Notes under the pieces: model-generated
What the model saw: only the letters and a program-made list of their open reading frames with translations
Told to the model about the DNA's origin: nothing
Database searches by the model: none
Source: Patescibacteria group bacterium
GTDB lineage: Bacteria > Patescibacteriota > Patescibacteriia > 2-01-FULL-39-33
Direction: 5' to 3'
Assembly: GCA_041650895.1 (NCBI GenBank)
Contig: JBAZKF010000001.1
Location: forward strand, 145,685-209,684
Length of the DNA: 64,000 nt
Part shown: positions 18,184 through 61,559 of the stretch, one piece after another
How the letters are laid out: every line of letters begins with the position of its first letter
Position numbering within the stretch: the stretch's first letter is position 1
Translations under genes and position numbers: made by a program

Positions 18184-18201
18184 AAGGATAAAATGATAAT
18201 G

Positions 18202-18275
18202 TGGACATTACAGGATTCGAACCTGTGACCTTTCGAATGTGAATCGAACGCTCTAACCAACTGAGCTAAATGTCC
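18202..18275 (-). tRNA. tRNA-Val (anticodon CAC), 74 nt, no encoded CCA
   Basis: The reverse complement folds by hand into a cloverleaf: GGACATT-TA-GCTC-AGTTGGTTA-GAGC-G-TTCGA-TTCACAT-TCGAA-AGGTC-ACAGG-TTCGAAT-CCTGT-AATGTCC-A. Confidence 0.9.
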
Positions 18276-18280
18276 ATTAT

Positions 18281-18351
18281 TGGACCTAGGCGGAATCGAA
18301 CCGCCGCCTCTACAATGCGAATGTAGCGTCGTACCACTAGACTATAGGCCC
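18281..18351 (-). tRNA. tRNA-Ala (anticodon CGC), 71 nt, no encoded CCA
   Basis: The reverse complement is GGGCCTATAGTCTAGTGGTACGACGCTACATTCGCATTGTAGAGGCGGCGGTTCGATTCCGCCTAGGTCCA. The anticodon loop TTCGCAT and the G3:U70 wobble pair (an Ala identity element) are present. The D-arm is short. Confidence 0.85.
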
Positions 18352-23039: not shown

Positions 23040-23062
23040 TAGTTCTGTAATTGATTAATATT

Positions 23063-30682: not shown

Positions 30683-31653
30683 AAGTCGGTCTTTTTAAAA
30701 AAATTCTTTACGGGTAAAAAAATAGCAATTAAAATTAATAAATAAGCGAGACTAAACAAATGTACTATGAAACCAGAAATAATAGACGCTTCCTTATTTA
30801 AGCCTAATAGTCCGAAGCTGATAGCCCAACCTGTTTCATAAGTTCCGAAGTCCCACAATCCCTGGATAGGCAAAAAACTTATTAATTGACTAAAAATCAA
30901 ACCCAGAGTTACTTTAAGCCAGTTAAAATCTATATTTAGGGCACGGAAAAAAACTACGATCATTAAAGAAGCGGACGCCAGCCACAAGAACGAAATCAAC
31001 AAATTAGTCAAGTAAACGGGCCAGGAACGAATTGTTTTGACGCTTGTTGCAACCTCTTCCAACTTAGTAGCCAGCTTAGCGCCAAATTGAAATTTAGTCA
31101 ATCTTGCCCAATGCATTAAAATAACAACCGCTTTAACCAGCCAATCAAGGTAGAATAATATGGCAATCGTGGCTAACCCAAGCATAAAACAGCTTAGATA
31201 GATTCTATTAGGCGGAATGTAGCCGGGGTTAAGCAAAATAAAACCGATCAGAAAAGAAAAAGCCACTGCCAAAAGATCAAAAAATCTGGCTACCAACAGG
31301 ACACTAAGCCCTTCTGCTATGGCTACATTCTCACGTTTTTTTATGAAATAAACAAAACTTAACTCACCGCTTCTAAACGGCATTAAATTACAAAAAAAAG
31401 TATAACCCAAAGTAATTTTCAAGGAACTCAAAAAACTTATTTTCTTAGAAAGAATCAAGACTTGCCAGCGCCAAGCCCGCAAACAAACGCCGATAAAATA
31501 AAAAATAAACGCGATTAAAGCGTAAGTCCATGATATATTTGAAATAATATCCCTGGCTTGAGTGAAATCAATCTGAGTTAAAAGCAAACACAATAAAATT
31601 ATGGTTACGGCCAAGGAGATTGTTTTTTTGCGCTTGGTTATCTTTTTCAACAT
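30679..31653 (-). CDS. UPF0104 / lysylphosphatidylglycerol-synthase-TM-region (flippase-like) family membrane protein
   Basis: 324 aa with about 8 TM helices. Includes LRAWRWQVLI and FCNLMPFRSGELSFVYF. Start and stop overlap the neighbouring genes (ATGA, TAATG). Confidence 0.65.
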   Translation of the reverse strand: MLKKITKRKKTISLAVTIILLCLLLTQIDFTQARDIISNISWTYALIAFIFYFIGVCLRAWRWQVLILSKKISFLSSLKITLGYTFFCNLMPFRSGELSFVYFIKKRENVAIAEGLSVLLVARFFDLLAVAFSFLIGFILLNPGYIPPNRIYLSCFMLGLATIAILFYLDWLVKAVVILMHWARLTKFQFGAKLATKLEEVATSVKTIRSWPVYLTNLLISFLWLASASLMIVVFFRALNIDFNWLKVTLGLIFSQLISFLPIQGLWDFGTYETGWAISFGLLGLNKEASIISGFIVHLFSLAYLLILIAIFLPVKNFFKKTDL

Positions 31654-33488
31654 TATTTTATCAAGTTAAGAAACCACATCTTGCCGGGACTGGTTTCAGC
31701 TTCTATTATTCCCGCCTGAGGCCAATCGACAATGTTTATCGCTTGGCTACTGGAGGAAATCTGCCCCGCTAATTCAGCATCATAACCAATTATATATTTT
31801 ACATTATAAACGTCAAAAGCCGACTGAAGTTTTTGCTCCTGCAATAAATGGTTGATAGTATTCGGAGAAAAATAGACAGTTGATACTCCGGTTAAATAAT
31901 TCAACAGAGGATGCAATGACCTATTGCCTACGGCCACCGCCTCTTCCGGTTTGATGGCGACACCCCAAGAACTGATTTGCTCAGCTGAATAAGCAATTTT
32001 CAAATTTATATTATTATCATATCCCCGGCCCCAATAGACATGATTAGCCTGGACTAAGCCATAAATGATTAAAAGAATAATCACCCCGCCGGCCAGCCGA
32101 CTAAATCTCTTTGCAACATAATAATCGCTGATCATCTTAGCTAAGCTCATCAAGCCCAGACTGATAAAAAGAGCAATCACCCAACCCCAATCCATTAAAT
32201 GATTGCGTGAGGCCAGAACGACGTAACTGGAAATAAAAATAGAAAACACCAGCCAACTGACAAAAAGATTGGTTAGATTCTTGTCTCGACGACTCAAGTC
32301 TTTAATACCCAATAACATTAAAATAAAAAACAGTGATCCGCCAATATACTCCAAGGCGAGAAATCGAGAAAGATGCGCCAGCAGATTATTGGATCCGACA
32401 AGAGCCCGCTCCGCCAAATTGATGGGGCGTATGCCGATATTGGCCCCCACCTTAATCAAGTCAATGCTCTTCAATAATCCTCGACCAGCTATGTCGGAAT
32501 TAAATTTGTCTAAAACCGTTTTCTGATCAAAATAAAAAGTATAGGGATCGGGGAAAAGATGGCCGTAAAAATTAAACTCAGACCAATTATTGGTTTGCGT
32601 CTCGCTGGCAAAAAACACCCTGAAATAATCATTATTACCGCTAAAACCGAATATCGCCGGCAACCAGAAAAAAGCTAATATTACAAAAAAAGGAACAAAC
32701 ACCAAACTGATGTTTCCAAGACTGCTTTTGACGGCATTGTTCCTTAAACCGGTTAAGACGGTTTTAAAACGTAACCAAATCAATCGGAAAAAAGACAAAT
32801 CCGTACGGGAATCGATAATAAGGGGTTGCTCTGAGGACTGAAAAATCAACCAAAAAAATAAAACTGGCGGAAATAAGAACATCACTTCCCGCGACAGGCA
32901 AGCTAGCGACAAAAAGACTCCGGACAAAGGCAGAAAAAAATATCTGCCCTTGACTTTACGGCCGATAAAAAACAAAACGCAAAAAACTGAAAAATACAGC
33001 ATCGCGAATTCGTAGGTGCCGATAGTTTGAACCATCTGGGAATTAAACGGCAATAAGATATAAACCAAAGAAAATATTGCGGCTATTTCCCAATCAAACA
33101 AATAAAACACGACGGCCGCAAATAAAACCAAAGCCAATGCCTGAATAATTACGGCAATGACTATTAAAGTGTTGAAATCTGGCAAGCCGATCAACTGAAA
33201 TAATGCAGCATAAGACCAGGTAGTAAACTTATTGCCCTGGGTACTGAGCTGAGCCCGCTGGCTGACTAAAGACGGCGCCAAAACGACATTGCGGCTGTCC
33301 TCCATGCCGTAAACCCCCGTTTGGACAAGATTCCTGGCCAAAATAAAATTCTCCGCTTCGGCCGGTTGGGCAGTACTGCCCTTAAAAAAAACCGGAAAAT
33401 ACCAAAAACCGGCTGCAACAAAAAAAACTACGGGCAATAAAACAAAAAGAATCGAGCTCTTAAACCTAAAATTTGGCTGTTGCGACAT
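31653..33488 (-). CDS. GT-C-like (ArnT/PMT_2-like) polytopic membrane glycosyltransferase, putative
   Basis: 611 aa with more than 12 TM helices. It has an acidic first loop, AEAENFILARNLVQTGVYG, and a C-terminal soluble segment of about 100 aa. Confidence 0.5.
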   Translation of the reverse strand: MSQQPNFRFKSSILFVLLPVVFFVAAGFWYFPVFFKGSTAQPAEAENFILARNLVQTGVYGMEDSRNVVLAPSLVSQRAQLSTQGNKFTTWSYAALFQLIGLPDFNTLIVIAVIIQALALVLFAAVVFYLFDWEIAAIFSLVYILLPFNSQMVQTIGTYEFAMLYFSVFCVLFFIGRKVKGRYFFLPLSGVFLSLACLSREVMFLFPPVLFFWLIFQSSEQPLIIDSRTDLSFFRLIWLRFKTVLTGLRNNAVKSSLGNISLVFVPFFVILAFFWLPAIFGFSGNNDYFRVFFASETQTNNWSEFNFYGHLFPDPYTFYFDQKTVLDKFNSDIAGRGLLKSIDLIKVGANIGIRPINLAERALVGSNNLLAHLSRFLALEYIGGSLFFILMLLGIKDLSRRDKNLTNLFVSWLVFSIFISSYVVLASRNHLMDWGWVIALFISLGLMSLAKMISDYYVAKRFSRLAGGVIILLIIYGLVQANHVYWGRGYDNNINLKIAYSAEQISSWGVAIKPEEAVAVGNRSLHPLLNYLTGVSTVYFSPNTINHLLQEQKLQSAFDVYNVKYIIGYDAELAGQISSSSQAINIVDWPQAGIIEAETSPGKMWFLNLIK

Positions 33489-33497
33489 AATTTAGAG

Positions 33498-34586
33498 TTA
33501 CTTTAAATGAAAATTCCCAAAAACCGCCCTAAACAAATGCCAAGGGCTCATCATAATATTAGGAAGTTGATAACAATAATGAGTACACCAACATTTCTTA
33601 TTCTTAATATCTAACCGTTGCTGTTTCGCAAGGGATGACTGCCAGGCCTTTCTAAAATCATAATCATAATCCCGCAGATTACCTATCTTGGGCAACATTT
33701 CGCAATTATACATATTACCCCAAGCGTCAATAACGGGGAAAAATAAAGCTGAGCGGCAAGGTAGGATTTGTTTTTTTTGCTTCATTATTTTTAATGCTAT
33801 CTTATGGTAATAAGCATAAAACAGCTTATTGGCCAAATCATTGGCCAATGTCTTACTCTTGAATAAAACACGGCTAAGCAATTCCTCATATTGCCCCAAA
33901 TCTACGGGTGCGATTTTTTGCGGGTCAAACGAACCGCGGATTACTTCAATCGTATGATATGTGATGCCGGGATGCTGATCAACAAAATCAATCACCGCGG
34001 CGATATTATCTTGGTTTACATTAGAAATAGTGGTATTAACACTGACCTGCAACAACTCATTAGTCTTAGCGATAGCCGTCAATTTCTCATACGTATCCAA
34101 AAAAAGCTTAAAGTTTCCAGCTATTCCTCTTACCCGATCATGCACCTCTCCGATTCCGTCCAGAGATAGGACTACTTTTAGTTTTATTGGCACGCGAACC
34201 AGTATCCTTTCGACTTGATCCGCTATCTTATCCGGCAAAAGACAATTAGTCGGTATGGCAATTTTTCTAGTGGCGCTGCAACGGTAAAAAATCTCGCAAA
34301 TTTCCGGCAAATCCGGCCGCAAAAACGGTTCACCTCCACCCAAAGTAACGCTTCTTATGTCGCCAATGGTTTGGGTAAATTTTTCTATTTCCGCTAAAGA
34401 AAGCTCCTTAGTTTCCGTGTTTATCACTTGCCAGTTAAAACACATTAGACAACGGGAGTTGCACTTGTTGGTTACTTGAAAAATTAATCCGTAAAGCGGC
34501 CATTCCCTTTTTGATAAAGAATAGAAATAGAACTTGCTTACAGGAAAATATTGTTTAATTATTTTTAATCGTTTAATAAAATCCAT
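33498..34586 (-). CDS. Radical SAM enzyme with Cys-rich SPASM/twitch-like C-terminus (no B12 domain)
   Basis: 362 aa. VTNKCNSRCLMC (CX3CX2C), GGGEPFLRPD, C-terminal LPCRS...YNCE...KKCWCTHYC. Confidence 0.8.
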   Translation of the reverse strand: MDFIKRLKIIKQYFPVSKFYFYSLSKREWPLYGLIFQVTNKCNSRCLMCFNWQVINTETKELSLAEIEKFTQTIGDIRSVTLGGGEPFLRPDLPEICEIFYRCSATRKIAIPTNCLLPDKIADQVERILVRVPIKLKVVLSLDGIGEVHDRVRGIAGNFKLFLDTYEKLTAIAKTNELLQVSVNTTISNVNQDNIAAVIDFVDQHPGITYHTIEVIRGSFDPQKIAPVDLGQYEELLSRVLFKSKTLANDLANKLFYAYYHKIALKIMKQKKQILPCRSALFFPVIDAWGNMYNCEMLPKIGNLRDYDYDFRKAWQSSLAKQQRLDIKNKKCWCTHYCYQLPNIMMSPWHLFRAVFGNFHLK

Positions 34587-38216: not shown

Positions 38217-39551
38217 TTAGTTTAGTTTAGAAAAGTATCCTCTCAAATAAGAAAAATGGGCTACTAAACTGAAAAATGACCAATAAACTATCAATGAGAT
38301 AATGGCATTCAACGGGGAAGTCAACTTCAAAACAAAAAATATCAGAATAAACCCAGAAACAAGATTGACGAGGTTTATAGCAATAGCATAGATATTTTTA
38401 TTGATTGTCCGATAAACTGACCCCAAACCAATCGTAAAACCGGAAAAAATAATGCTTAATGACAGCGGATAAACCAGCTTAATGCTTAAATTAAATTCCG
38501 GGCCATAAACAATTCTAATAAGGTAAGGAGCGACAGCCAAAGACGCTAAGACAATGAAAAAAAATATAAACCCGGCAAAAAGCGACGATTTATAAAAATT
38601 GGCTTTTAGATCTTTAATCCCGGCAACCTTGGCTTTAGGCAACTGCACCTGCAATAAACGACTGATCGGGGTCAGAAAAACATTAGACAAAGCCAAATAA
38701 GCCAAGGCTATTTTCAGGTTAGCCACCTCCGCCGATGAAGCCAAGTAACCAAGGATTAATAAAGGCAGAATATTAAACAAACTAGCGATATTTTTATCCA
38801 CAGCCATGACAAAACCGAAATTAAAGTATTTCTTAATTTTGACCTGATAAAAATTAGATAGAATCTCACCAAACGCTGGTACTAATTCATTGCGACGAGA
38901 AAAATTACGATAGACTAAAATAGAAAAAACCATGGATCCGATAATCGTTAATAAATAACCCCAAACGATTCCGGCTAAGCCAAAACCCATAAAAACAAAA
39001 ATCACCGGTAAAAACACGGCAAAAAATTTATTAATATTCTCTGCAATAGTCAGATATTTTATCTTTCGCATGACTTGAAGCAGGTTCACTAATAAACCAA
39101 AAAATATTTGGAAGATGTAGCCGACGATTATTAATCTGGCTAATTCGCCGATCAAGCGGTTATGATAAAACCACTGGGCTAAGGCGGGAGCTAAAATAAT
39201 AGCGGCCAAGCCGAAAGTAAAGGAGATGATTAAGTTCAATTTAAAAAAATAGGTGATGATATCCTTGATATCCTGACGGCTTCTTCTGGCGTAAGCCTCA
39301 GCCAAAAGCGTCAAAGTAGCATAACCGGTGCCCCAATCCATAAATAACCCGGCAAAGCTGGCTAAAGCAAAAATCAAGGCGTAATCACCGTACGTGCCGA
39401 CGCCCAAAACCCTGGCATAAATAACAGAGGCGATCAGCGACAGACCCAAATCCCAAAAGGAGCCCCATTGCAAAACCAATAGGTCACGAAAAAATTTCAG
39501 CTTCCATAAATATTGCCAACCGGAGATGATTTTTTCTTTAATTACTTTCAT
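38217..39551 (-). CDS. Wzx-type oligosaccharide flippase (MOP/polysaccharide biosynthesis protein family)
   Basis: 444 aa with about 12-14 TM helices. N-terminal IASVIYARVLGVGTYGDYALIFA is typical of PST-family flippases. Confidence 0.7.
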   Translation of the reverse strand: MKVIKEKIISGWQYLWKLKFFRDLLVLQWGSFWDLGLSLIASVIYARVLGVGTYGDYALIFALASFAGLFMDWGTGYATLTLLAEAYARRSRQDIKDIITYFFKLNLIISFTFGLAAIILAPALAQWFYHNRLIGELARLIIVGYIFQIFFGLLVNLLQVMRKIKYLTIAENINKFFAVFLPVIFVFMGFGLAGIVWGYLLTIIGSMVFSILVYRNFSRRNELVPAFGEILSNFYQVKIKKYFNFGFVMAVDKNIASLFNILPLLILGYLASSAEVANLKIALAYLALSNVFLTPISRLLQVQLPKAKVAGIKDLKANFYKSSLFAGFIFFFIVLASLAVAPYLIRIVYGPEFNLSIKLVYPLSLSIIFSGFTIGLGSVYRTINKNIYAIAINLVNLVSGFILIFFVLKLTSPLNAIISLIVYWSFFSLVAHFSYLRGYFSKLN

Positions 39552-43671: not shown

Positions 43672-45021
43672 TTATTTTTTAAAAATCACTTCCTGCCAAA
43701 AAACCGGTTTATACCAATATCCTCGGCCGTATTTAAGGCGATTCTTATAATCCCTTAAGAACAATAAACTCCAAAAAGGCTTCAATTCGGTATTAATCAA
43801 TCCCGCATATTTTTCAATATTATTCCAATGCAACCTTTTACCGGGGAATTTATTTTTTATCCGCTCGAATAAAACGGTTCCAGGATAAGGGATAACGGGC
43901 AAAAATTGTTTAACTTGCAAATTATTTTCGACAATAAAATCTATAGTTTCTTTAATGGTCTGCCGATTTTCTCCCGGTGCGTTCAATAAAACACAATACC
44001 CTCCGGCTACGCCGTTCTCTTTTAAGATATCAATCGCCGATCGTAAATCTGCCGAAGTTATTTTTTTATTAATTTCAATTAAAACCCTGTCACTGGCGGA
44101 CTCCATGCCTAAATTTACATTAATACATCCGGCTCGCTTGACTAAAGGCATAATCCCCCTACTCTTAATGATATCAGTCGCCCGGGCATTGGCGCCCCAA
44201 GAAAACCTGAGGCCTCGATCAATGATAGCTGAACAAATCCTCTCTACCCTGTCGCCATCAATAAAAAATTCCCAGTCCTGAAAAAAAACTGATTTAATTT
44301 GAAAATTATTTATCAAGTACTCAATCTCTTCTATTACTTTTTCAACACTCCTAACAATATAACGTCCGGGCATCATGGCCTTAAGGCAGAAAACACAATT
44401 GTAAGGGCAGCCGCGCGAAGTCATTATGACAGAAAAAGGCTTCTCATAATCATTGCTGGAATATTTATCCATCGGCAACAGATCATAGGCCGGCAAAGGC
44501 AAAACATCCAGATCAATGATTCTCTCACTTGGATTATTCACGATTTTGCCGCCTTGACGATAAGACAAGCCGGAAACTTTCGAAAATGCCTGCTCTGCGG
44601 CCAGGGTAACAATCAAATCAGACGCGGATAATTCTGGCTCACCCCTGATAATAAAATCAACTTGGCAATTATCAAACACCCATTCTGGCATAGTGGTGCC
44701 GTGACTGCCGATCAATATTTTGTACTTAACCTTTACCCGGTCTATAATCTTAAAAATGTTTTCAATATGGGAATTAGGGCACTCCCAGCGGTCAATCGGC
44801 GTAGAGGTAATAATGAAGGCCTCGGGACCGAAATCATTGACTGCCTGGTAAATGGATTCTAACGGCAAATTCAAAACATTGGCATCCAATAATTTGATAT
44901 CGTGGCCGGCCTGCCTTAAAATAGAGGCGATAATAGCCATCGACAACGGCTGCCTGGCCCTGACATTCATAATTGACTTCTTCTCCTGGTTAAAATTAGG
45001 AATTAATAAAAATATTTTCAT
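43672..45021 (-). CDS. B12-binding-domain radical SAM enzyme (class B), paralogue rS6
   Basis: ATG 45021 (MKIFLLIPNF) is preferred. The track start at 45207 would overlap the upstream gene by 173 nt. LIGSHGTTMPE...IRGEPELSA and SRGCPYNCVFC. Confidence 0.85.
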   Translation of the reverse strand: MKIFLLIPNFNQEKKSIMNVRARQPLSMAIIASILRQAGHDIKLLDANVLNLPLESIYQAVNDFGPEAFIITSTPIDRWECPNSHIENIFKIIDRVKVKYKILIGSHGTTMPEWVFDNCQVDFIIRGEPELSASDLIVTLAAEQAFSKVSGLSYRQGGKIVNNPSERIIDLDVLPLPAYDLLPMDKYSSNDYEKPFSVIMTSRGCPYNCVFCLKAMMPGRYIVRSVEKVIEEIEYLINNFQIKSVFFQDWEFFIDGDRVERICSAIIDRGLRFSWGANARATDIIKSRGIMPLVKRAGCINVNLGMESASDRVLIEINKKITSADLRSAIDILKENGVAGGYCVLLNAPGENRQTIKETIDFIVENNLQVKQFLPVIPYPGTVLFERIKNKFPGKRLHWNNIEKYAGLINTELKPFWSLLFLRDYKNRLKYGRGYWYKPVFWQEVIFKK

Positions 45022-45034
45022 TTTATCGATTAAG

Positions 45035-47599
45035 TTAATCATTGATATAAACCGCTTTGCAACATCTGGAACAAATCGGTAACGAATGCTTGAATAAATA
45101 TTGACGGAATTTTTGGTAATCATTGGACAGCCAAATCTCATCAGGAGTCTTATCCAATAAGCTCCCGAAAGATTTTTCAATGATATCGCACCAAACAACT
45201 TCGCCACGCTGATTAATGCGCAACTCGGGCTGCAATAATTTCAAACAAAAAGGCCGGGACGGTTTCTGACCCAAATACTGCGGTAAGTTATGATAATAAT
45301 TCAACGGAGAGAAATTAACAAAACAGCCAGTCTTAAGTCCGTACAATCTGATTTTAGCCAATTTTTTCTTCAACTCTACGGCGTCAGTATCAGGAGGAAA
45401 AATAGGATCCCTAATCTGCGTATTAAGGCGGTAATCGCGGCCCTCTTCCCAGCCAAACTCCCGATTAAAAATACTCTTGGCTTGAGCTACGTCGGCAGAT
45501 GAATAAACTTGCTCAAATAAGACATTAATTGTTGTAATGCCTAATTTTTTAGTGGTATCAATCAATTCAAAAAATTTATCTACATTATCATTAATTAACA
45601 AGGTGGCGAAAATGGTAATAGGAACTTTAGGCATTTTGGCCTGCAAAAGCTTAATGGCCCGCTCCAACCGATCAAAAGTACCCGGTACGCCCCTAATAGC
45701 GTCATGTAACTCCTTGGGACCGTCCAGCGAGGTTAGAATATCAGTCAGATGCTTATAACCCGCTAATTGATCAATATTACGCTCATTAATAAGCGTACAG
45801 TTAGTTTGAAGGATTACCCGTTTACCGAGAGAATCCCAAAAAGCAATAAGCTGCAAAATATCTTGGCGGGCGAATGGTTCGCCGCCGACTAATTTTATTT
45901 CTTCCACCTGGCTGGACATTTTTTTAAACACCTCAAGAATCTGTTCAGCTGACAATTCCTGCTGGCGTAAATTCCTATTCTCTCCTTGATAACACATCTT
46001 ACAACGCAAATTGCATCTGATGGTCGGTTCATAGCCGACTTCATAAACTAGCGGGGACTCGGTTTGAAAAGGCAGAGCCGGCGCTTGAATAAATTTTTTA
46101 ACCCTGATAATCGCCAACCTATTCCGCCGCCAATCATAAAATATTTTTGCCAGCGGAGAGATTATTGGCACGGCTTTTACCGCTTTTTTAAGCTGATGCT
46201 TATTATTTTTCAAATAAGTTAAGAATAATCCGCAATCATAAACTAAAGGCGAAAAGAAAAAGACATAAACCGGCAGGCGATAACGCGCCAAGACAAAGGG
46301 CGAGACCATCAAAGCGGTATACAGAATTATCATCACTGCAAAAATGAAAAATAGCAGTTTATCCCGATCTTTAAAATAAGAATAAATTAAGGCGATAGCC
46401 AAGGCCAGAGAACTAATACCCCATAAAGCAACACCGGCCAAATAAGTTAATAGTTTAAGATTAATCTGTTTGATGAAGTCAAAAATTCCCTGCCAGTTGC
46501 CATTCAAGATAAATCCGGTGATATCCGGTTTAGAAAACTCCCCAGTGCAAGCCGACCACATCTCGAAGTATCCGGGCTGAAAAAAGAAAGGTATTGTCCT
46601 AATCAGATGAACCTTAAGATAGCCGCCCAGATTGCCTAATATATAAGCCTTGGCCGTTTGACTGTAATAATCCAGCTCGCGATTGAATTCAGATAAGCTG
46701 ACTGACAGGCAATCGCCTTGATTGCCGATATTTTTCCCCAGAGCGCTATCGGCTTGCCGGACAATAAGATTATAAGCATCAGCGTAAGGAATTTGTCTCT
46801 GATAAGAGATCAGCGCTGGCAGATTATAAAAATAAATATTAGTATCAAATAGATTGACCAAAGCCGGCCGATTATAAACAACCTTATTCCTAATAATGAT
46901 CGGCGAAATCACCGCAAAAAATACAATCATGAAAGCAACACAACTTAACAAAATCTTGCGCCAACTCAACTTCGCCAATCCGCCGGTCGGTACGAGTTTC
47001 CGAACCAAATAAACTAAAACAAGACCGGCTGGAAATATTAAAAGCAAGGGGGAAGTATTTTGCCTAGCTAATGTTGAAATGCCGAGCCAAAAAGCGCTCA
47101 GCAACAAATCCCTGCTCTTAGCGCTGGAGAAAAATTTCAAAAAATAATATGTGCCGCCTAAAAATAACGGGATGGCCAAATTCTCGCTGACCAACAAAAA
47201 ATTATGCCAAGCCCAATAAGGTTCAATGGCAATCAAAAAAGTAACCAACAAAGAAATCTTCTCGTTAAAAAACAAGCGAACCAGCTTATAGCCGATGATT
47301 AAGGTCACGAAAGCCAAAACTACTTGCGCCAAATAAATCGTCCATTCCCCTCCCAACCAATGCAATAAGACCGAAGTCGTCAAGTAATACAATGGCGGAT
47401 GCCAATCACAGTAATCGTGAAAAATACCCAATAAAACAGAAACAGCCGGCTGAGCCTGGTTATAAAAATTCTGCCAACCGCCTTTATTTAAGCTGGCCTG
47501 CCAAAAAGTGATAAAAATTGAAATACGCACCGCCAGAAAAGCGGCGACAATGACCAGCCATGACCGATATTTAAAAACGATATTTCTTATATTTGACAT
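45035..47599 (-). CDS. Fusion protein: N-terminal GT-C/PMT_2-like polytopic membrane domain + C-terminal radical SAM/SPASM domain
   Basis: 854 aa. Residues 1 to about 480 are roughly 12 TM helices with DWHPPLYYLTTSVLL (a PMT_2-type motif). Residues from about 510 onward contain EPTIRCNLRCKMC (CX3CX2C), VGGEPFARQD, and a SPASM-like tail FCL...GEVVWCD...FGSL...EIW...PICSRCC. Confidence 0.8.
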   Translation of the reverse strand: MSNIRNIVFKYRSWLVIVAAFLAVRISIFITFWQASLNKGGWQNFYNQAQPAVSVLLGIFHDYCDWHPPLYYLTTSVLLHWLGGEWTIYLAQVVLAFVTLIIGYKLVRLFFNEKISLLVTFLIAIEPYWAWHNFLLVSENLAIPLFLGGTYYFLKFFSSAKSRDLLLSAFWLGISTLARQNTSPLLLIFPAGLVLVYLVRKLVPTGGLAKLSWRKILLSCVAFMIVFFAVISPIIIRNKVVYNRPALVNLFDTNIYFYNLPALISYQRQIPYADAYNLIVRQADSALGKNIGNQGDCLSVSLSEFNRELDYYSQTAKAYILGNLGGYLKVHLIRTIPFFFQPGYFEMWSACTGEFSKPDITGFILNGNWQGIFDFIKQINLKLLTYLAGVALWGISSLALAIALIYSYFKDRDKLLFFIFAVMIILYTALMVSPFVLARYRLPVYVFFFSPLVYDCGLFLTYLKNNKHQLKKAVKAVPIISPLAKIFYDWRRNRLAIIRVKKFIQAPALPFQTESPLVYEVGYEPTIRCNLRCKMCYQGENRNLRQQELSAEQILEVFKKMSSQVEEIKLVGGEPFARQDILQLIAFWDSLGKRVILQTNCTLINERNIDQLAGYKHLTDILTSLDGPKELHDAIRGVPGTFDRLERAIKLLQAKMPKVPITIFATLLINDNVDKFFELIDTTKKLGITTINVLFEQVYSSADVAQAKSIFNREFGWEEGRDYRLNTQIRDPIFPPDTDAVELKKKLAKIRLYGLKTGCFVNFSPLNYYHNLPQYLGQKPSRPFCLKLLQPELRINQRGEVVWCDIIEKSFGSLLDKTPDEIWLSNDYQKFRQYLFKHSLPICSRCCKAVYIND

Positions 47600-50434: not shown

Positions 50435-51553
50435 TTATGAATTAATGAAAGAGACGATTTTTTCAGCGCGCTTCTTCCAAGTATATTTTTCCGCATCGCT
50501 CCGGGCGCAACGAGAGATATTCTCGGCTAATTGCCGTTGCGTCAAAGCCCGGTTAATGCCCGCCGCTAAAAGATCAGAATTATCCGGCTCAACTAAAATA
50601 GCATTATTATCATTTAAAATTTCCCTCAAAGAAGGCAAATTAGAAGCGACTATAGGTACGCCACTGGCTAAATATTCAAAAAGTTTAAGCGGTGAAGTAT
50701 AAAATTGCGATATTTTTTCCTGCCCGGAATTAGGCAAAACCAAAACATCAGCGGCCTTCAGATAGAACGGGATTTGCTTATGCGGCTGATGGCCGAGAAT
50801 TAAGACATTAGCGCTATTGACATTTTTTTTCTTAAAAGCTTCAACATCTTCCTTAGTACCGCCGATAAAAACAACCAGGGATTCATTAGACAGATACCGG
50901 GCGGCTTCAGCCAAAACCTGCGCTCCTTTCCAACCATAAAGATGGCCGGTGTAAACAATCAATTTTTTATCCAACGGCAAATTAATTTTTTTCCTGGACT
51001 CCGTGGCGGTAATATTCAGATCAAACTCAGCCAAATCAACGCCATCGGGAGCAATTAATATTTTATCAGCAGCGATTCCGTTGCTGGCCAGAGCGGATTT
51101 AATAAAATCAGTCAGAACAACAATCCGTTGAAAACACCGCCAAAAAAGACGATGATACGATTTGATTGTTGCAGGCAAGGAGTGAAGTTCCAAAAAAGAC
51201 GATTTAAAAAATAAGCCGAACTGTTCTTCGCGTGTATATATAATATCATACTCCCTGAAAGACACGTAGATTCTGCTGGCTAACAAAAAAGTTGCAGTCG
51301 CCAGCCAAAAAGCCAGATTACCAATTGTTTTATCCAAAAAAATCAAATCTAAACAGGGTAATTCGGTAATCTTAAAATTAGCCGGTAAACCGTAATAGTT
51401 GAAGGGATCGGCTTTAAGATTATTAGAACGCCGCGGTACCACCAATTCAACTTGATGACCCAAAACAGAGAAAGTCTCGCACATTTTCATGATTTGCCAG
51501 CCATGAGCCTTCTCGGTCGGTATTCTGATGTTTGCCAAATAAATTATTTTCAT
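50435..51553 (-). CDS. Glycosyltransferase family 4
   Basis: ATG 51553 (MKIIYLANIRIPTEKAHGWQI) forms an ATGA overlap with the upstream stop. C-terminal KLFEYLASGVPIVASN...EILNDNNAILVEP. Confidence 0.85.
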   Translation of the reverse strand: MKIIYLANIRIPTEKAHGWQIMKMCETFSVLGHQVELVVPRRSNNLKADPFNYYGLPANFKITELPCLDLIFLDKTIGNLAFWLATATFLLASRIYVSFREYDIIYTREEQFGLFFKSSFLELHSLPATIKSYHRLFWRCFQRIVVLTDFIKSALASNGIAADKILIAPDGVDLAEFDLNITATESRKKINLPLDKKLIVYTGHLYGWKGAQVLAEAARYLSNESLVVFIGGTKEDVEAFKKKNVNSANVLILGHQPHKQIPFYLKAADVLVLPNSGQEKISQFYTSPLKLFEYLASGVPIVASNLPSLREILNDNNAILVEPDNSDLLAAGINRALTQRQLAENISRCARSDAEKYTWKKRAEKIVSFINS

Positions 51554-53709
51554 TTTTTTGTTTTTACTAAATAACACATTTGATGGCCGAACATATTAGG
51601 CCAAATATCTTTAAGACGAAAACCATTAGACGATTTAAATCTAACAACATCTAGACCCAAATCATTCAGCCAAATCAAAAAATCCTTATGGCTCCAAAAC
51701 CGCAGGTGTTCTGACGGATGTGTCATCCATTGGGTAAAAAATCTTCCTCCAAACATTAAGCCGAAACGATAACGGTAAAAAGCGGAATTAGGAACTGAAA
51801 TTGCCAAATAGTCGGCATTATCTTTTATTTTAGAGATTAAATCCTCGGGATATTTGATGTGTTCCAAAACCTCTGAAATCACAATGTAATCATATCGGTC
51901 GTCCAAATTAAAATCAGCGCTCTCGATATCGGCTTTTACTCCGTCAATGCCGGCTTGCTTTAAGTTATTGATTACTAATCCGGAAATATCCAAACCACTG
52001 ACCCGGCAACCCTTCTTTTCTTTTAATTCATAAGGCAGACGCGAACTGCCACAGCCAAGATCCAGAATTTTAGCTCCGGGCTTAATCCAATCCATAAAAA
52101 TCACTTCCCTTTCCATTAATTTGCTACGCATCTTGAAGCCGCGCTCTGACCAATACTGATCATAATCAAGTTGTTTGGTGATATTTTTGAAATCAGGGCG
52201 ACGCGTACCCTCAAAGAAGAACGATTTCGAGACGCGAGCTATGATTTTGTCAAAATAATACTTAAGCGCGCGCTTGACTTTGAATAATATAAAATCTAAA
52301 CGCTCTTTTTTGTTACCCAACTTAAGCCAGATTTTTGCCAGCTTCAAAAAGTGGGTTAAGCCTCTCTTTTTTACGCCCTCAAATATCTCCTGACGCCAAC
52401 TCTCAAATAATTTTCCCAACTCCTGGGAATCACTGACGCCAGAACGATTGAATTTGTCCTGGCTTTGGAAAAAAGAGAAATTACAATAATCGGAGGTATT
52501 GATACGACCCTTAAAAAAATCATTAAAAAGCTTCGTCCCTGGCAGGGCGGTAAAGATACTGAAAGAATAATGATCAGCTTTGATTTTCTTGGCGAATTCA
52601 AAGGTTTGCCGCATTTCTTCTTTAGTTTCGCCGGGCAGGCCGATCATAAAGCCGGCTTCGCGACGGATGCCGTGTTTCCGGCAAAGTTCCAGGGCTTTTT
52701 CCACATCGGATAATTTTATCCTTTTATTAATGATTTCATCTAAAACGCGCTGATTACCCGATTCAACGCCAAAATCAAGCTGTAAACAGCCACTTTCGGC
52801 CATTAACTTGATGATTTCTTCATTAACCAAATCCACTCGCGATTGAGCCCCCCAATACAGACCGGCTTCCTTCATAATCTGGCAAACCTTCCTAACATGA
52901 TCGTAATTAGCCGTTAAGGTATCATCAGCAAACCAAATTCCTTCAACGCCATATTTATCCCTTAAAAGATAGATTTCTTTTTTGATGTTTTCCAAACTGC
53001 GATAACGCACCTGACGCCCAAAAACCTGATTGCAGGCGCAAAAAGTGCAGCTGTAGGGACAGCCCCGGGAAGCCATAACCATCACCGCTTTCATAGGGAT
53101 GCCTCGGATAATATCGTCCCAGATCTTAGTATAGTAGGTCATATTCACCTTATCATAAGCCGGCAAGCTTAAATCAGTCAGATCCATATACTCCCGCCGT
53201 TCATTGATGACAACTTCATTATTCTGATCCGGCCAGGCGATGCCCTTCACCTTCCTTAGATCGGGCGACTCCTGCTGTAATTCCTTAATTAATTCAAAAG
53301 TAGTTTGTTCGCCTTCGCCGATAATGGCGGCATCAAAGCCGGAATTAACTACGCCAATCGGATCGGCTGTAGCTTGAGGCCCGCCGATAATCGAAAAAAC
53401 TTTGAGTTCTTTTTTAATCCTCTGATTCATTTCCACAGCTTCGGCAATTTCCATGGTCGTGGCAGTAAAACCGATTACTTGCGGCTTAAACTCTAAAACA
53501 GCCTTAATGATCTCCTCCTTGGCTCTTTCACGATTATCGTATTGATAGCCTCTGTCCGCGAATATTTTCCCGTCGATAATCAAATTATCAAAACCATGAT
53601 CCCGCAAATATCCGGAAATATACATCAAACCCAAAGAATAACGATGCTCCTTGAGCCGTTTAGGGGGAAGAATAAAAATCAAATCTTTATCTTGGCTAAT
53701 TTTTATCAT
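51550..53709 (-). CDS. Fusion protein: B12-binding-domain radical SAM (paralogue rS8) + C-terminal class I SAM methyltransferase domain
   Basis: 719 aa. IIGGPQATADP...IIGEGEQTT and SRGCPYSCTFC are followed, from about residue 520, by KILDLGCGSSRLPYEL...YDYIVISEVLEHI (methyltransferase motifs I-III). Confidence 0.85.
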   Translation of the reverse strand: MIKISQDKDLIFILPPKRLKEHRYSLGLMYISGYLRDHGFDNLIIDGKIFADRGYQYDNRERAKEEIIKAVLEFKPQVIGFTATTMEIAEAVEMNQRIKKELKVFSIIGGPQATADPIGVVNSGFDAAIIGEGEQTTFELIKELQQESPDLRKVKGIAWPDQNNEVVINERREYMDLTDLSLPAYDKVNMTYYTKIWDDIIRGIPMKAVMVMASRGCPYSCTFCACNQVFGRQVRYRSLENIKKEIYLLRDKYGVEGIWFADDTLTANYDHVRKVCQIMKEAGLYWGAQSRVDLVNEEIIKLMAESGCLQLDFGVESGNQRVLDEIINKRIKLSDVEKALELCRKHGIRREAGFMIGLPGETKEEMRQTFEFAKKIKADHYSFSIFTALPGTKLFNDFFKGRINTSDYCNFSFFQSQDKFNRSGVSDSQELGKLFESWRQEIFEGVKKRGLTHFLKLAKIWLKLGNKKERLDFILFKVKRALKYYFDKIIARVSKSFFFEGTRRPDFKNITKQLDYDQYWSERGFKMRSKLMEREVIFMDWIKPGAKILDLGCGSSRLPYELKEKKGCRVSGLDISGLVINNLKQAGIDGVKADIESADFNLDDRYDYIVISEVLEHIKYPEDLISKIKDNADYLAISVPNSAFYRYRFGLMFGGRFFTQWMTHPSEHLRFWSHKDFLIWLNDLGLDVVRFKSSNGFRLKDIWPNMFGHQMCYLVKTKK

Positions 53710-54775
53710 ATTTGTTTTTGGGGCCTAATAACTCTTCAATAAGACCGCCATCTAACAATTGTTTGACTAAAATTTCCGGCCGGCATAATCGGCAATAAAT
53801 CTCATAACCATTATCGGCGATTTTTTCATAATTTATTCTACCCTCTTTCAGCGCTAAGATTTTAGACGCCAAATCCTGGGCATCGGCCAAACGGCAAAAA
53901 ACCGCATCTTGGCCGTCCGTAAGCAATTCCCTGATAGCCGAAGAATCACCGGTCAAAACCGGCCGCTTGGCCGCTAAGCCCTCATAAACCTTATTAGGGA
54001 TAACTCTTTTAGCTTTATCAGTATGGCCGAATATACCTAGGCAAACATCAGCCTCCGCCAAATAGCCCCTTAAATTATCAATGGACACGGGCTCTATAAA
54101 ATTAACATTACTGACTTTAAGCCGGCTCGCCAAGTCAATTATTTCCCGGTAAGTCTGACCGTGGCCGATAATATTAAATTTGATATTTTCCCCCTCTAGA
54201 ATTTTCGTCGCTTCAATAATATACTCTATGCCCTGTAAAGGAATAAAACTGCCATGAAAATGAACCAAAAAATAATCTTTTTTCTTAGGAGTAATAGGAA
54301 AAATAACCTTATCATCACAACCGACTAAAACCCGATAAAACTTTTTTCTCTCCAACTTTAATTCTTTTACAAAATAGTCAATCTGGGCATTGGTATCCAA
54401 TAAAATTTTATCCGCCAAACGGCAGGATAACCAATCCAATAACCAGTAATACCTTCCTTTAAGGCTTTGCGCTTTAACGATTTTCCTATCTTCAACCATG
54501 GAATCAAAAAAAGAGTAAAAAGCGTCAAAAACAATCGGTTTAACGGTTAAAAGCCTGGCCAAAATCATGGCCTGAAACCCCGGAAAACCAACGATCATAA
54601 TATCATATTTCTTACGGATTGACCAGTGTTTTTTAATTAAATCCCAATACTTCAACGGCCCTTTGACGCTTGTTCGGCATTCAATCACATCAACGCCGTT
54701 TAACTTAAAACCGCCAAGCAAAATCCTATTGCGGCTATAATCAGGATCATAAATTCCGAAATAACAAATAATCAT
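53696..54775 (-). CDS. Glycosyltransferase family 4-like (GT-B)
   Basis: 359 aa. MIICYFGIYDPDYSRNRILLGG at the N-terminus and C-terminal PNKVYEGLAAKRPVLTGDS...LLTDGQDAVF. Confidence 0.75.
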   Translation of the reverse strand: MIICYFGIYDPDYSRNRILLGGFKLNGVDVIECRTSVKGPLKYWDLIKKHWSIRKKYDIMIVGFPGFQAMILARLLTVKPIVFDAFYSFFDSMVEDRKIVKAQSLKGRYYWLLDWLSCRLADKILLDTNAQIDYFVKELKLERKKFYRVLVGCDDKVIFPITPKKKDYFLVHFHGSFIPLQGIEYIIEATKILEGENIKFNIIGHGQTYREIIDLASRLKVSNVNFIEPVSIDNLRGYLAEADVCLGIFGHTDKAKRVIPNKVYEGLAAKRPVLTGDSSAIRELLTDGQDAVFCRLADAQDLASKILALKEGRINYEKIADNGYEIYCRLCRPEILVKQLLDGGLIEELLGPKNKYDKN

Positions 54776-59351: not shown

Positions 59352-61559
59352 TTAAAGGAATCGACTAAAAAACGCTCTGAATCCGTCACTGGTCAACAAC
59401 CATAAATAGTCAACCAAAACAATAACGATAACGACCGCAACCCGACTCGGCCAGCGGTAAAAATATTTTCTTAACCCGTTAACGGCCAACAAGGTTAATA
59501 GCAAAGCCAGGACAAAATACAAACGAGATGACACACCGGTCCAAAGCAAAAACATAAACGACGGCAGAATCAGGCACTTAACCAGGAACCTCTGATCGGC
59601 GGTAAACTCCCGCCATTTAATCAATCCTAACGGCACCAAAAGCCAAGCAGCCAGATAAACGCCGACGATACTCTTAACAACAAAAAACGGCTGATATTCG
59701 GAACCGCTGGGAGCGCTAATGCCCAGTTTATACCAATCCAAATATGAATAATGATAAATGAAATAAACCACGATTTGCCAAGCGATTAAGGGCAAGCCGA
59801 CCGCTAAGGTTGATAAAAATAATTTTTTGAGTTTTTCGGCTCGAGGCAGTTGCGGATGGAAACATATCACCAGATACAGGAAAGCCATACCCAAACTGCT
59901 ATATTCTTTCCATAACATGCCAACAACAACCATCAACGAAGTTAAAAATAAATTAAAGTTGTTAGGCCGTTTATAAAATCTAATGACGCCGATAGCGGCC
60001 AAAACCCAGAATAATTGGGCGCCCGACTCGGTAAACAAATCCAAGCCATACTTAAGTAACGGATAGGAAGAAATATAAATCAACGCTCCCAGAAGCGCCA
60101 TTCCTCTATTTTTAAAAAACAAATAAAATAAAACGTAAACGGCTAAAGCCAAAAAAACATAAAATATAATCGCCTCTATCTCAAAAGCTAACGATAGATT
60201 GCCACCGGTTAAAAACGACAGTCCGGCAATACCCATAGGCCCCAACGGTTTTAAAATTCTGGAAGGAAAACTCTCCGCCATTTGTCCCATAAACAGCTTA
60301 GCCGTTTCCATATACTGATAAGCATCGCCGTTAATGCTAAAACCGACAAAATTGAGCCGAATAAACACGTTCAACGCTACCGCGGTTAAGATTAAAAGAA
60401 TCGGCCAAAAATGATTATTGGTCGACTTGGTCGGCCGGCACTTTTTGTCTATGGCTGTTTGCCAGCTTTTCAGATAAAGCGCCAAATTTTCCTCTCGGCC
60501 GGGCAAAATGTTAATCGCCGATTCGGCCGACTGGCTGAGTTGCCGGCGCAAGCCAATATTCTGAATAATCTTTTTCATGGCGTCAGCTAATTTTTCTTCG
60601 TCGCCAACGGGCGTGATTAATGCGCTGACTCCGTCTTTCAACACCTCACCGGCGCAACCGACATCAGTCATCACTACCGCCAAACCGCAACTGGCGGCTT
60701 CTATTATCACCATCCCCCAACCCTCATAATCAGAACTCAAAACATAACTATCGGCTGAGTTGTAATAATCATAAATATTGTCAGTCCAACCGATCAAAAA
60801 GATTTTATCCTCCAAGCCGGATTCTTTTATTTGTTGGGCGAGTTTGTCTTTTTCCGGACCGCGACCGACTATAAGCAAAACCGCCTCCGGCAATTGCCGG
60901 GCAACCGTGGCGAAAGCTCTGATCAGCAACGGCAGATTTTTCTGTTTTACCAATCGAGCCATAGTCAAAAAAACAGTTTTGCCGACTAAGCGGCCGAAAA
61001 TCTCCGGCTTAGTTTCGCTGAATTGCTTCTCGGGCTTAACATAGACAGGAACAACAACAATTTTATCTTCGGCTATATGCAAATCATTAACCAAAGTATC
61101 CTTTATCCGCTCACTGACTGCGCGCACGCTGTCGGCTCGCTTAATCAGCCAGCGCCCCAGATAATAACGGCAAAAGTTAATAGGATTTTCATTGCGCCAA
61201 TAAGTCGCGCTAAAAAAATCGCCATGTTCCTGAATATTCAAAGCGCTCTTGAATTTCCTAGCCAGCAATAATCCCATCAGCGACAATTCAAAAGGATCTT
61301 GAACCGTTATGACATCATAATTATTCTGGCGGAACAGTTTTTTCGCTAACCGATACATATTGAATAGTGCCGCTAATCGGTTGCCGCCACCCGTGCCGTA
61401 AGCCGTTACTTTTTCTGATAATTTAATTTCTTGCGCTGGCGTAGCGGGCACGATAATATCATAAGCGTCCGTCATAACGCCATACTCAATCAAACGCCGA
61501 GTTACGGGTGATGAGGAAACGAATACGCCTTTATCGGTGCCTAAGTTTAATACTTTCAT
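59352..61559 (-). CDS. Fusion protein: N-terminal GT4 glycosyltransferase + C-terminal polytopic membrane (GT-C-like) domain
   Basis: 735 aa. Residues 1 to about 370 are GT-B (KQKNLPLLIRAF...SDYEGWGMVIIEAASCGLAVVMTDVG). Residues from about 385 onward are about 11 TM helices, starting at NHFWPILLILTAVALNVFIRL...INGDAYQYMETAKL. Confidence 0.8.
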   Translation of the reverse strand: MKVLNLGTDKGVFVSSSPVTRRLIEYGVMTDAYDIIVPATPAQEIKLSEKVTAYGTGGGNRLAALFNMYRLAKKLFRQNNYDVITVQDPFELSLMGLLLARKFKSALNIQEHGDFFSATYWRNENPINFCRYYLGRWLIKRADSVRAVSERIKDTLVNDLHIAEDKIVVVPVYVKPEKQFSETKPEIFGRLVGKTVFLTMARLVKQKNLPLLIRAFATVARQLPEAVLLIVGRGPEKDKLAQQIKESGLEDKIFLIGWTDNIYDYYNSADSYVLSSDYEGWGMVIIEAASCGLAVVMTDVGCAGEVLKDGVSALITPVGDEEKLADAMKKIIQNIGLRRQLSQSAESAINILPGREENLALYLKSWQTAIDKKCRPTKSTNNHFWPILLILTAVALNVFIRLNFVGFSINGDAYQYMETAKLFMGQMAESFPSRILKPLGPMGIAGLSFLTGGNLSLAFEIEAIIFYVFLALAVYVLFYLFFKNRGMALLGALIYISSYPLLKYGLDLFTESGAQLFWVLAAIGVIRFYKRPNNFNLFLTSLMVVVGMLWKEYSSLGMAFLYLVICFHPQLPRAEKLKKLFLSTLAVGLPLIAWQIVVYFIYHYSYLDWYKLGISAPSGSEYQPFFVVKSIVGVYLAAWLLVPLGLIKWREFTADQRFLVKCLILPSFMFLLWTGVSSRLYFVLALLLTLLAVNGLRKYFYRWPSRVAVVIVIVLVDYLWLLTSDGFRAFFSRFL

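Follow-up and report, generated by a model that had tools for sequence, protein, structure and literature searches.

Why should a radical S-adenosylmethionine (SAM) enzyme with a B12-binding domain and a conventional class I SAM-dependent methyltransferase be joined in one protein? The question is raised by a gene in a 64,000-nucleotide (nt) stretch of DNA from a Patescibacteria group bacterium (hereafter the window; GenBank assembly GCA_041650895.1, contig JBAZKF010000001.1, positions 145,685–209,684 of the forward strand). An earlier note on this DNA had described the gene as a class B radical SAM enzyme fused to a class I methyltransferase, and had proposed that radical and polar methyl transfer act in sequence on the same substrate. 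The reading that we favour, with moderate confidence, is that the gene is a genuine, selected fusion of two sugar-tailoring genes in a cell-surface glycan locus, and that its product is a bifunctional enzyme that tailors a surface glycan.

The fused gene is genuine and under purifying selection

The gene appears in the list of open reading frames (ORFs) as a single unbroken frame (719 codons and a TGA stop) on the minus strand of the window (51550–53709); the strand is the sole correction to the earlier note, which gave none. Pfam scans yielded the order B12-binding domain, radical SAM core, helical C-terminal region and MetW-like class I methyltransferase, with all three domains above Pfam thresholds. 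The architecture that had been claimed thus holds, including the B12 domain, the CPYSCTFC motif of the radical SAM core (amino acids (aa) 217–224) and a C-terminal domain of about 200 aa, which we place at aa 496–719 (224 aa). An identical protein (P0001) is present in NCBI, JGI and ENA under the name 'MAG: radical SAM protein [Patescibacteria group bacterium]', with the JGI label 'methionine biosynthesis protein MetW', and database matches gave metagenome-assembled genomes (MAGs) of Candidatus Buchananbacteria as the source of its closest relatives.

Among the 120 best database relatives, only P0001–P0005 (77–100% identity, 719–722 aa) have the radical SAM–methyltransferase order. The next approximately 40 radical SAM orthologues are proteins of 482–527 aa with B12-binding and radical SAM domains only, 45–67% identical to the N-terminal part, and most unfused orthologues are approximately 493 aa long (490–497) and stop at the column that aligns with residue 496. 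This prevalence of unfused orthologues could suggest that the long frame arose from an error of assembly or sequencing or from a recent stop loss, or that its C-terminal domain is a decaying, non-catalytic appendage, as could the facts that the closest stand-alone methyltransferase (in locus L021) is a separate gene and that a comparable radical SAM–methyltransferase frame in locus L020 is broken by a TAA codon and a deletion in motif I. Five distinct fused alleles effectively refute this idea, which we regard as scarcely credible. The alleles (window; L010, identical to L024; L014, identical to L025; L022; and L023) were independently assembled on several contigs and in several assemblies and share 75–90% aa identity; the JGI sample Ga0172379 alone holds four different contigs with the fused gene, and others come from NCBI MAGs and from ENA and Logan assemblies. 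All five have exactly 719 codons with zero indels. Their synonymous divergence (dS) exceeds 1, and is thus mostly saturated, in most pairs (approximately 0.5–0.6 for the closest pair, L014 and L023), and the ratio of non-synonymous to synonymous divergence (dN/dS) is 0.03–0.06 in the radical SAM half and 0.05–0.10 in the methyltransferase half. DNA alignment further revealed that the junction is in frame in three diverged alleles although the surrounding DNA differs, and the methyltransferase retains an intact motif I, acidic loop and set of signature residues of its family. An assembly or frameshift artefact is thereby ruled out, and both halves have been kept by selection as a fusion. The earlier note had asked whether orthologues are fused or split, and had held that consistently split orthologues would imply an error in this sequence: most are indeed split, yet the split state is the ancestral arrangement and not a sign of error.

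As for the junction, stand-alone methyltransferases of the family to which the C-terminal domain belongs (MTc, described below) start with MF(Y/F)FxGTRKPDF, where the fused protein reads S496-FFFEGTRRPDF. Because S496 takes the place of Met1, the radical SAM C terminus is joined directly to the methyltransferase with no added linker. The AlphaFold2 model has a low-confidence coil at residues 495–506 between two well-folded parts, and no solved chain spans both halves (Foldseek query-normalised TM-scores of 0.43 or less). The fusion did not simply join neighbouring genes of the kind present in locus L001, where the adjacent methyltransferase (of a different MetW-like type, MTn) is located upstream and shares 29% identity with the fused domain, itself a member of MTc. 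Locus L021 was also rejected as the direct pre-fusion state, as the radical SAM gene before its MTc is a different paralogue with 26% identity.

The N-terminal half has class B radical SAM features

The cobalamin-binding-type Rossmann domain (aa 25–137; 53299–53637, minus strand) matched PF02310 with 57 bits (cut-off 32.1). It carries the three base-off cobalamin motifs, G80-F-T82-A-T84 (GxS/TxX), G109-G110 (GG) and G131-E132-G133-E134 (GE), all of which are invariant or nearly so across the aligned orthologues; as defined in OxsB, TsrM and TokK, GxS/TxX (the 'downstream Cbl motif') lies on the β3–α3 loop, GG on β4 and GE at the start of α5 (PMC9204698). The predicted local distance difference test (pLDDT) score of the AlphaFold2 model is above 90 over aa 1–200. 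The radical SAM core (aa 214–373; 52591–53070, minus strand), delimited by PF04055 (110 bits, cut-off 29.5), orthologue alignment and fold matches, contains the [4Fe–4S] cluster motif C217-x3-C221-x2-C224 (nt 53038–53061), with cysteines invariant in orthologues, and the conserved strings WFADDT, GVESG and FMIGLPGET. Cluster motif, PF04055 match and fold place the protein in the radical SAM superfamily, and the Rossmann-type cobalamin domain before the core, together with the three motifs, assigns it by sequence to class B; cobalamin is likely to be bound. The remainder of the half (aa 374–495; 52225–52590, minus strand) comprises the last barrel elements and then long helices, modelled at 428–448, 450–463 and 467–494 with low confidence over 414–448. 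At its very end (aa 430–495; 52225–52420, minus strand), the predicted helices are rich in lysine and arginine (LKLAKIWLKLGNKKERLDFILFKVKRALKYYFDKI), and might form an amphipathic element that associates with the membrane, as would suit a glycan substrate linked to lipid.

Two solved enzymes stand out as relatives. The best sequence match was QCMT (PDB 9ccb; 108 bits over aa 100–436), in which VVGGP and IQGEGE stand opposite IIGGP and IIGEGE of the fused protein. QCMT, also called MgmA, is the B12-dependent enzyme that C-methylates a glutamine of methyl-coenzyme M reductase (PMC12931638); its GG and GEGE cobalamin motifs and its cluster motif align with ours, whereas it modifies the side chain of a methanogen protein and its 450-aa chain has no methyltransferase fusion. 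Second was AprD4 (102 bits), aligned from residue 171 on and thus over the radical SAM core only, and AprD4 (PDB 6fd2) was also the top Foldseek match (E = 2e-19), followed by TsrM, OxsB, CysS and TokK. AprD4 is a radical SAM 1,2-diol dehydratase that acts on paromamine with no cobalamin bound (PMC12931638). Its Rossmann-like N-terminal domain and its sugar substrate resemble what we see or propose here; it differs as a dehydratase whose alignment lacks the GG and GE motifs.

No curated NCBIfam family of B12-type radical SAM enzymes reached its cut-off (ApyD, BchE, HpnJ, PhpK, QCMT/TIGR04014, AprD4, HpnR, KedN5 and TsrM were tried), which rules out membership of a characterised family; the scores against cut-offs were 181 against 750 bits for ApyD, 158 against 481 for BchE, 151 against 578 for HpnJ, 136 against 360 for TIGR04014 and 115 against 500 for AprD4. 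GenK, GenD1, Fms7 and MoeK5 are cobalamin-dependent radical SAM C-methyltransferases of sugars. They share with the fused protein an N-terminal B12 Rossmann domain, a CxxxCxxC core and pathways that contain glycosyltransferases; the carbons that they modify are unactivated ones of sugars, in the making of glycosides or phosphoglycolipids (PMC9204698). In contrast to it, they are single-function enzymes of actinomycete antibiotic pathways with no fused class I methyltransferase, and the sequence similarity of the window protein to any curated family lies far below the cut-offs. By analogy with GenK, GenD1 and MoeK5, radical C-methylation of a sugar would be the single most probable reaction of this half.

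The near-parity of AprD4 with QCMT and its top fold rank make a non-methylating reaction a real possibility. On this account, which we consider unlikely but worth keeping in sight, the radical half would carry out a dehydration, deoxygenation, epimerisation or rearrangement, and the class I domain would perform the only methyl transfer. HpnJ, which contracts a sugar ring, and BchE are among the best NCBIfam matches of the fused protein and of its nine paralogues in the locus, and class B members that do not methylate are well documented (PMC9204698; PMC12931638). A fusion would also be sensible if the radical product were the substrate of the methyltransferase. Against this, AprD4, the aminoglycoside-sugar enzyme that needs no cobalamin, aligned only beyond the cobalamin motifs, whereas the alignment to QCMT covered GG and GE as well, and all three motifs are invariant in the orthogroup. 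The motifs weaken the non-methylating alternative without removing it, as a retained cobalamin would still fit chemistry of the OxsB or HpnJ type.

The C-terminal half is a MetW-like methyltransferase

The earlier note had let its reading depend on matches of the C-terminal region to methyltransferase models. The domain (aa 496–719; 51553–52224, minus strand), delimited by Pfam, family alignment and fold, matched Pfam MetW (PF07021) over aa 538–715 with 72 bits (cut-off 21; profile positions 7–193 of 193) and Methyltransf_23 over aa 531–689 with 60 bits, and Methyltransf_11, Methyltransf_12, Methyltransf_25 and Methyltransf_31 also scored above their cut-offs. The motifs that had been quoted are where they should be: motif I, ILDLGCGSSR, at aa 548–557 and motif II, DYIVISEVLEHI, at aa 607–618, with the acidic loop GLDIS (572–576) between them, all intact for SAM binding. 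The domain was modelled with a pLDDT of approximately 95 and matched the fold of 3cc8 (TMt 0.70). Motif I, the acidic residue, motif II and the fold together identify a class I (Rossmann-fold) methyltransferase.

We use MTc for the family of stand-alone Patescibacteria methyltransferases, typically 220–235 aa, that are homologous to this domain. We found more than 380 homologues; the best 120 listed are all short (193–251 aa), lack radical SAM domains and reach 74% identity, and those among them with a named source come from Patescibacteria (candidate phyla radiation, CPR) or unclassified 'bacterium' MAGs. The family alignment displays the conserved strings VLDxGCGNSRL, DYIIxSExLEH, PNSAFYRYRxGLxFxGRFFTQWxxHPSEHLRFWSH, SNG and NLFGHQICY, and the window protein bears the corresponding signature PNSAFYRYR...GRFFTQW..HPSEHLRFWSH at aa 640–674, in which the conserved HPSEHLRFWSH might provide a catalytic histidine.

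The domain is MetW-like in fold and family and is not MetW, a name that is an over-annotation here. MetW is a protein of class I methyltransferase fold and the partner of homoserine O-acetyltransferase MetX. The C-terminal domain covers the Pfam MetW profile in full; it differs in its glycan-assembly context and in belonging to a distinct Patescibacteria family with a signature of its own. A genuine MetW was ruled out because the NCBIfam equivalog TIGR02081 scored 69.9 bits against a cut-off of 189.5, no metX lies nearby and the neighbours are glycosyltransferases.

The fused gene occupies a variable slot between two glycosyltransferase genes

In the window, the fused gene is flanked by two glycosyltransferase genes on the same strand, both of which overlap it. 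The stop end of the upstream gene (53696–54775, minus strand; 359 aa, Glycos_transf_1 only) overlaps the start of the fused ORF by 14 nt. Downstream, the stop of the fused gene (TGA, 51552–51550) and the start of a Glycos_transf_1/Glyco_transf_4 (GT4) gene (ATG, 51553–51551) share the sequence ATGA ('...aaaaaATGAaaata'), an overlap that the earlier note had already seen. The GT4 gene (50435–51553, minus strand) encodes 372 aa from this ATG, which we prefer to an alternative in-frame GTG at 51577 because the orthologue in L021 is called at 372 aa.

To place this arrangement among its relatives, 80 metagenome loci centred on MTc and 20 centred on the radical SAM orthologue were compared and annotated against labelled window proteins. 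They contained 72 distinct MTc genes, 5 fused and 67 stand-alone. A homologue of the 359-aa glycosyltransferase lies immediately upstream of MTc, stand-alone or fused, in 39 of the 72 loci, and directly upstream of the radical SAM orthologue in most loci centred on the latter (most of L001–L019). The commonest downstream neighbour of MTc, counting only loci with enough flank, is a homologue of the GT4 gene (21 of 72), which also lies downstream in most radical SAM-centred loci. The two genes are thus the conserved left and right borders of a slot whose content varies. Most loci hold MTc alone and L004/L018 the radical SAM gene alone. MTn followed by the radical SAM gene occupies the slot in L001–3, L011 and L019, and in L012 and L013 MTn is fused to the radical SAM N terminus (P0009, 727 aa). 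The radical SAM gene is followed by a DegT gene, a methyltransferase gene and MTc in L005/6 and L051; another radical SAM paralogue precedes MTc in L021 and L026; MTc precedes the radical SAM gene in L055; and the radical SAM–MTc fusion is found in the window, L010, L014, L022, L023 and L027. The fused gene represents one of the states that this tailoring cassette takes within a glycosyltransferase frame that is itself conserved.

The main genomic partner of MTc across the 72 loci is a glycosyltransferase and not an aminotransferase: GT1 was a neighbour in 39, a DegT aminotransferase was adjacent in 5 and a short-chain dehydrogenase/reductase (SDR) or Rml-like gene in 4, figures that do not separate an oxygen from a nitrogen acceptor. 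In relatives, the slot or its immediate surroundings contain genes for DegT aminotransferases and RmlB/RmlC-like proteins, which suggests that at least part of the chemistry takes place on nucleotide-activated sugars. In several of these relatives, a stand-alone MTc directly follows a DegT/DnrJ/EryC1 sugar aminotransferase gene (L005, 8613–11256; L008, 12154–13918, with the genes overlapping; L035–L037; L083) and RmlA/B/C-like genes lie near the pair, which hints that in such genomes MTc acts on a nucleoside diphosphate (NDP)-amino or NDP-keto sugar.

Methyltransferase fusions recur at either end of the radical SAM enzyme

MTn and MTc are approximately 29% identical, yet each is fused to the same radical SAM orthogroup, at opposite ends; MTn is also found as a separate gene 3–5 nt upstream of the radical SAM gene in L001, L011 and L019. 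A third class I methyltransferase follows a radical SAM orthologue in frame in L020 (10080–10140; P0041, Parcubacteria group bacterium Athens0714_12), where the frame is broken by one TAA and motif I is partly deleted (VLDAG*ELVAFDFD). A third fusion in decay, an error of sequencing or recoding could each account for this. Among the 150 best representatives of clusters at 50% identity, unrelated B12-type radical SAM proteins carry a class I methyltransferase at the C terminus (P0087 and P0244) or at the N terminus (P0293 and P0299). P0009, P0087, P0244, P0293 and P0299 have the same three domain types as the window protein, with the methyltransferase at either terminus; they differ from it as independent fusions with other methyltransferase subfamilies (at most 29% identity or different Pfam profiles) and, in all except P0009, with different radical SAM lineages. 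That fusion has recurred in either orientation speaks strongly for a role of both activities in one pathway.

The coupling is not obligatory, since MTc and the radical SAM enzyme are each found without the other. A B12-type radical SAM gene is present in the fetched flanks (at most 6 kb on each side, with many contigs shorter than that) of 20 of the 72 MTc loci and absent from those of the other 52, and several loci of the radical SAM orthologue (L004/L018 and L015–L017) have no MetW-like methyltransferase. Of the earlier proposal of radical and polar methylation of one substrate in sequence, the functional link stands on the independent fusions, whereas an obligatory sequence of the two steps gains no support from these counts; as a proposal, sequential methylation of one substrate remains reasonable and is strengthened by the recurrence of fusion and by the shared slot.

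The two halves could also act serially on one position, in that the class I domain would O-methylate a sugar hydroxyl and the radical SAM half would then C-methylate the methoxy carbon, once or repeatedly, to give O-ethyl or O-isopropyl ethers, in the manner of CysS in cystobactamid and CndI in chondrochloren biosynthesis. In the pathways of these two enzymes, the methoxy group is installed by a separate class I O-methyltransferase. CysS and CndI set a precedent for polar and then radical methyl transfer at one position (PMC9204698), albeit with two separate proteins and with carrier-bound aromatic acids rather than sugars as substrates. Structures of CysS hold 3-methoxy and 3-ethoxy substrates, channelling of a product to the enzyme that uses it is the classical rationale of gene fusion, and methyltransferase fusions recur at either end of B12-type radical SAM proteins. 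The similarity to CysS is weak, however (36 bits, Foldseek rank 9), and the radical SAM orthologues in L004/L018 and L015–L017 have no MetW-like methyltransferase nearby, so that they do not strictly depend on its product, although these loci do contain other methyltransferases. We also know of no O-ethyl sugars in bacterial envelope glycans, and regard serial ether formation as distinctly improbable.

A search of open-access papers found no description of this fusion, of related fusions or of Patescibacteria glycan loci rich in B12-type radical SAM genes. The combination of a B12-type radical SAM enzyme with a class I methyltransferase is already in public databases, in several lineages and uncharacterised; it joins known kinds of enzyme and is not a new kind. 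Fusion of tailoring enzymes can go far beyond the two-domain case: the giant proteins P0246 (2279 aa), P0247 (2331 aa), P0249, P0254 and P0261 contain four or five tandem radical SAM modules, which in P0246 are one SPASM-type and four B12-binding units.

The surrounding locus is built for glycan assembly

Pfam scans delineated a glycan-assembly locus that occupies both strands from 23051 to 63990 and runs off the end of the window. It contains a Bac_transf initiating transferase (23051–24400, plus strand), a Polysacc_synt flippase (38217–39551), a plain radical SAM gene (33498–34586) and ten genes for B12-type radical SAM proteins, listed at 27833 (plus strand), 29255, 35551, 39562, 42255, 43672, 47611, 51550 (the fused gene), 57874 and 61568, as well as approximately 12 GT2/GT4/GT9 genes, 2 polysaccharide deacetylase genes, 3 stand-alone methyltransferase genes, a FemAB-like gene and an LPG_synthase_TM gene. 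The Candidatus Buchananbacteria MAGs L010 and L014 share this gene order. The ten paralogues lie within approximately 35 kb (27833–63013), interleaved with glycosyltransferase and methyltransferase genes, and none reached any NCBIfam cut-off, the best partial similarities being to HpnJ, BchE and ApyD. Such a density of class B radical SAM genes in an envelope-glycan locus is itself unusual and arguably more striking than the fused gene.

Heavy tailoring of this kind also recalls natural-product biosynthesis, and the fused enzyme might be thought to modify a secreted small molecule from an aminoglycoside-like, glycolipid or peptide cluster. Most characterised B12-type radical SAM methylases belong to secondary metabolism (PMC9204698), ten such enzymes in a locus are reminiscent of heavily tailored products, and ApyD, an enzyme of peptides made on ribosomes and modified after translation (RiPPs), is among the top NCBIfam similarities. 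The locus nevertheless has the hallmarks of polyprenyl-phosphate-linked glycan assembly, namely Bac_transf, a Polysacc_synt/MATE-like flippase, PMT_2 (GT-C), GT2/GT4/GT9 and deacetylases, and many Patescibacteria share the module, with its synteny preserved. No features of nonribosomal peptide synthetases, polyketide synthases or RiPP precursors were seen in the locus, in which small ORFs were not searched. A natural-product cluster is therefore very improbable.

Several other features of the window deserve mention. A second fusion in the locus (45035–47599, minus strand; 854 aa) joins an N-terminal PMT_2 domain (GT-C membrane glycosyltransferase) to a radical SAM core and a C-terminal SPASM domain; it is kept in L010 and L014 (52–81% identity, 854–855 aa), and the 173-nt overlap of its start with the ORF called at 43672–45207 makes it probable that one of the two starts was called wrongly. 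Also inside the locus are a 735-aa GT4 protein whose C-terminal approximately 390 aa have no Pfam match (59352–61559, minus strand) and an ORF of 611 aa without any Pfam match (31653–33488, minus strand). At the other end of the window, positions 1–2000 have a GC content of 51.6%, compared with 37–45% elsewhere in the window, and contain no rRNA or other Rfam family; the sole RNA genes in the window are those for tRNA-Val and tRNA-Ala (18201–18351).

Discussion

The bifunctional tailoring of a surface glycan that we favour can be cast as a series of steps. A B12-type radical SAM gene of approximately 493 codons and a MetW-like methyltransferase gene of approximately 225 codons would have stood as separate genes in the shared slot, and in one clade the stop of the former and the start of the latter would have been lost, so that the two were joined end to start without a linker. 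In the resulting enzyme, the N-terminal half would use its [4Fe–4S] cluster and SAM to generate a 5′-deoxyadenosyl radical, which would take a hydrogen from a sugar (nucleotide-activated or linked to a polyprenyl carrier) at an unactivated carbon; a methyl group would then, most likely, pass from methylcobalamin to that carbon, as in GenK, GenD1 and MoeK5. The C-terminal half would use a second SAM for polar (SN2) methylation, on oxygen, nitrogen or carbon, of the same sugar or glycan intermediate, and the flanking glycosyltransferases would handle the modified sugar next. In this scheme, we infer the use of cobalamin and methylase chemistry, as well as which atom either half modifies and in which order the steps follow.

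A number of points weigh against it. To our knowledge, Patescibacteria are generally held to be unable to make cobalamin. The radical SAM half reached no curated B12-type family, and AprD4, which works without cobalamin, nearly equals QCMT as a sequence match and leads the fold matches. For the methyltransferase half, the best matches among solved structures (3cc8 and 2p7h) come from structural genomics and have no known function, and none of its close relatives is characterised. The functions of the members of the fusion family are predicted from their sequences, and the two partners do occur apart, as the MTc loci that lack a B12-type radical SAM gene and the radical SAM loci that lack a MetW-like methyltransferase attest.

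It is difficult to tell which substrates cobalamin-dependent radical SAM enzymes act on, and a natural fusion offers a Rosetta stone that points to a shared pathway intermediate. Because fusion recurs in both orientations, this assignment is robust for the radical SAM lineage and the MetW-like methyltransferases, and, as they share a slot flanked by two conserved glycosyltransferases, the sugar that those transferases handle becomes the candidate substrate. The variable cassette resembles the serotype-type diversification of O-antigen and capsule loci, and the cell surface of Patescibacteria mediates attachment to the host. Ten B12-type radical SAM genes, a further radical SAM gene and the PMT_2–radical SAM–SPASM fusion among approximately 12 glycosyltransferase genes suggest heavy radical tailoring of glycans in episymbiotic Patescibacteria. 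It is a bold and rather unlikely extension of these findings that Patescibacteria surface glycans are decorated by radical chemistry on a scale undescribed for envelope polysaccharides, with the fused enzyme as a self-contained two-step module. If that were true, polar O-methylation followed by radical C-methylation of the methoxy group (to O-ethyl or O-isopropyl), or C- and O-methylation of a single residue, would yield sugar structures new to bacterial envelopes, and cobalamin would be scavenged to run ten enzymes of one locus.

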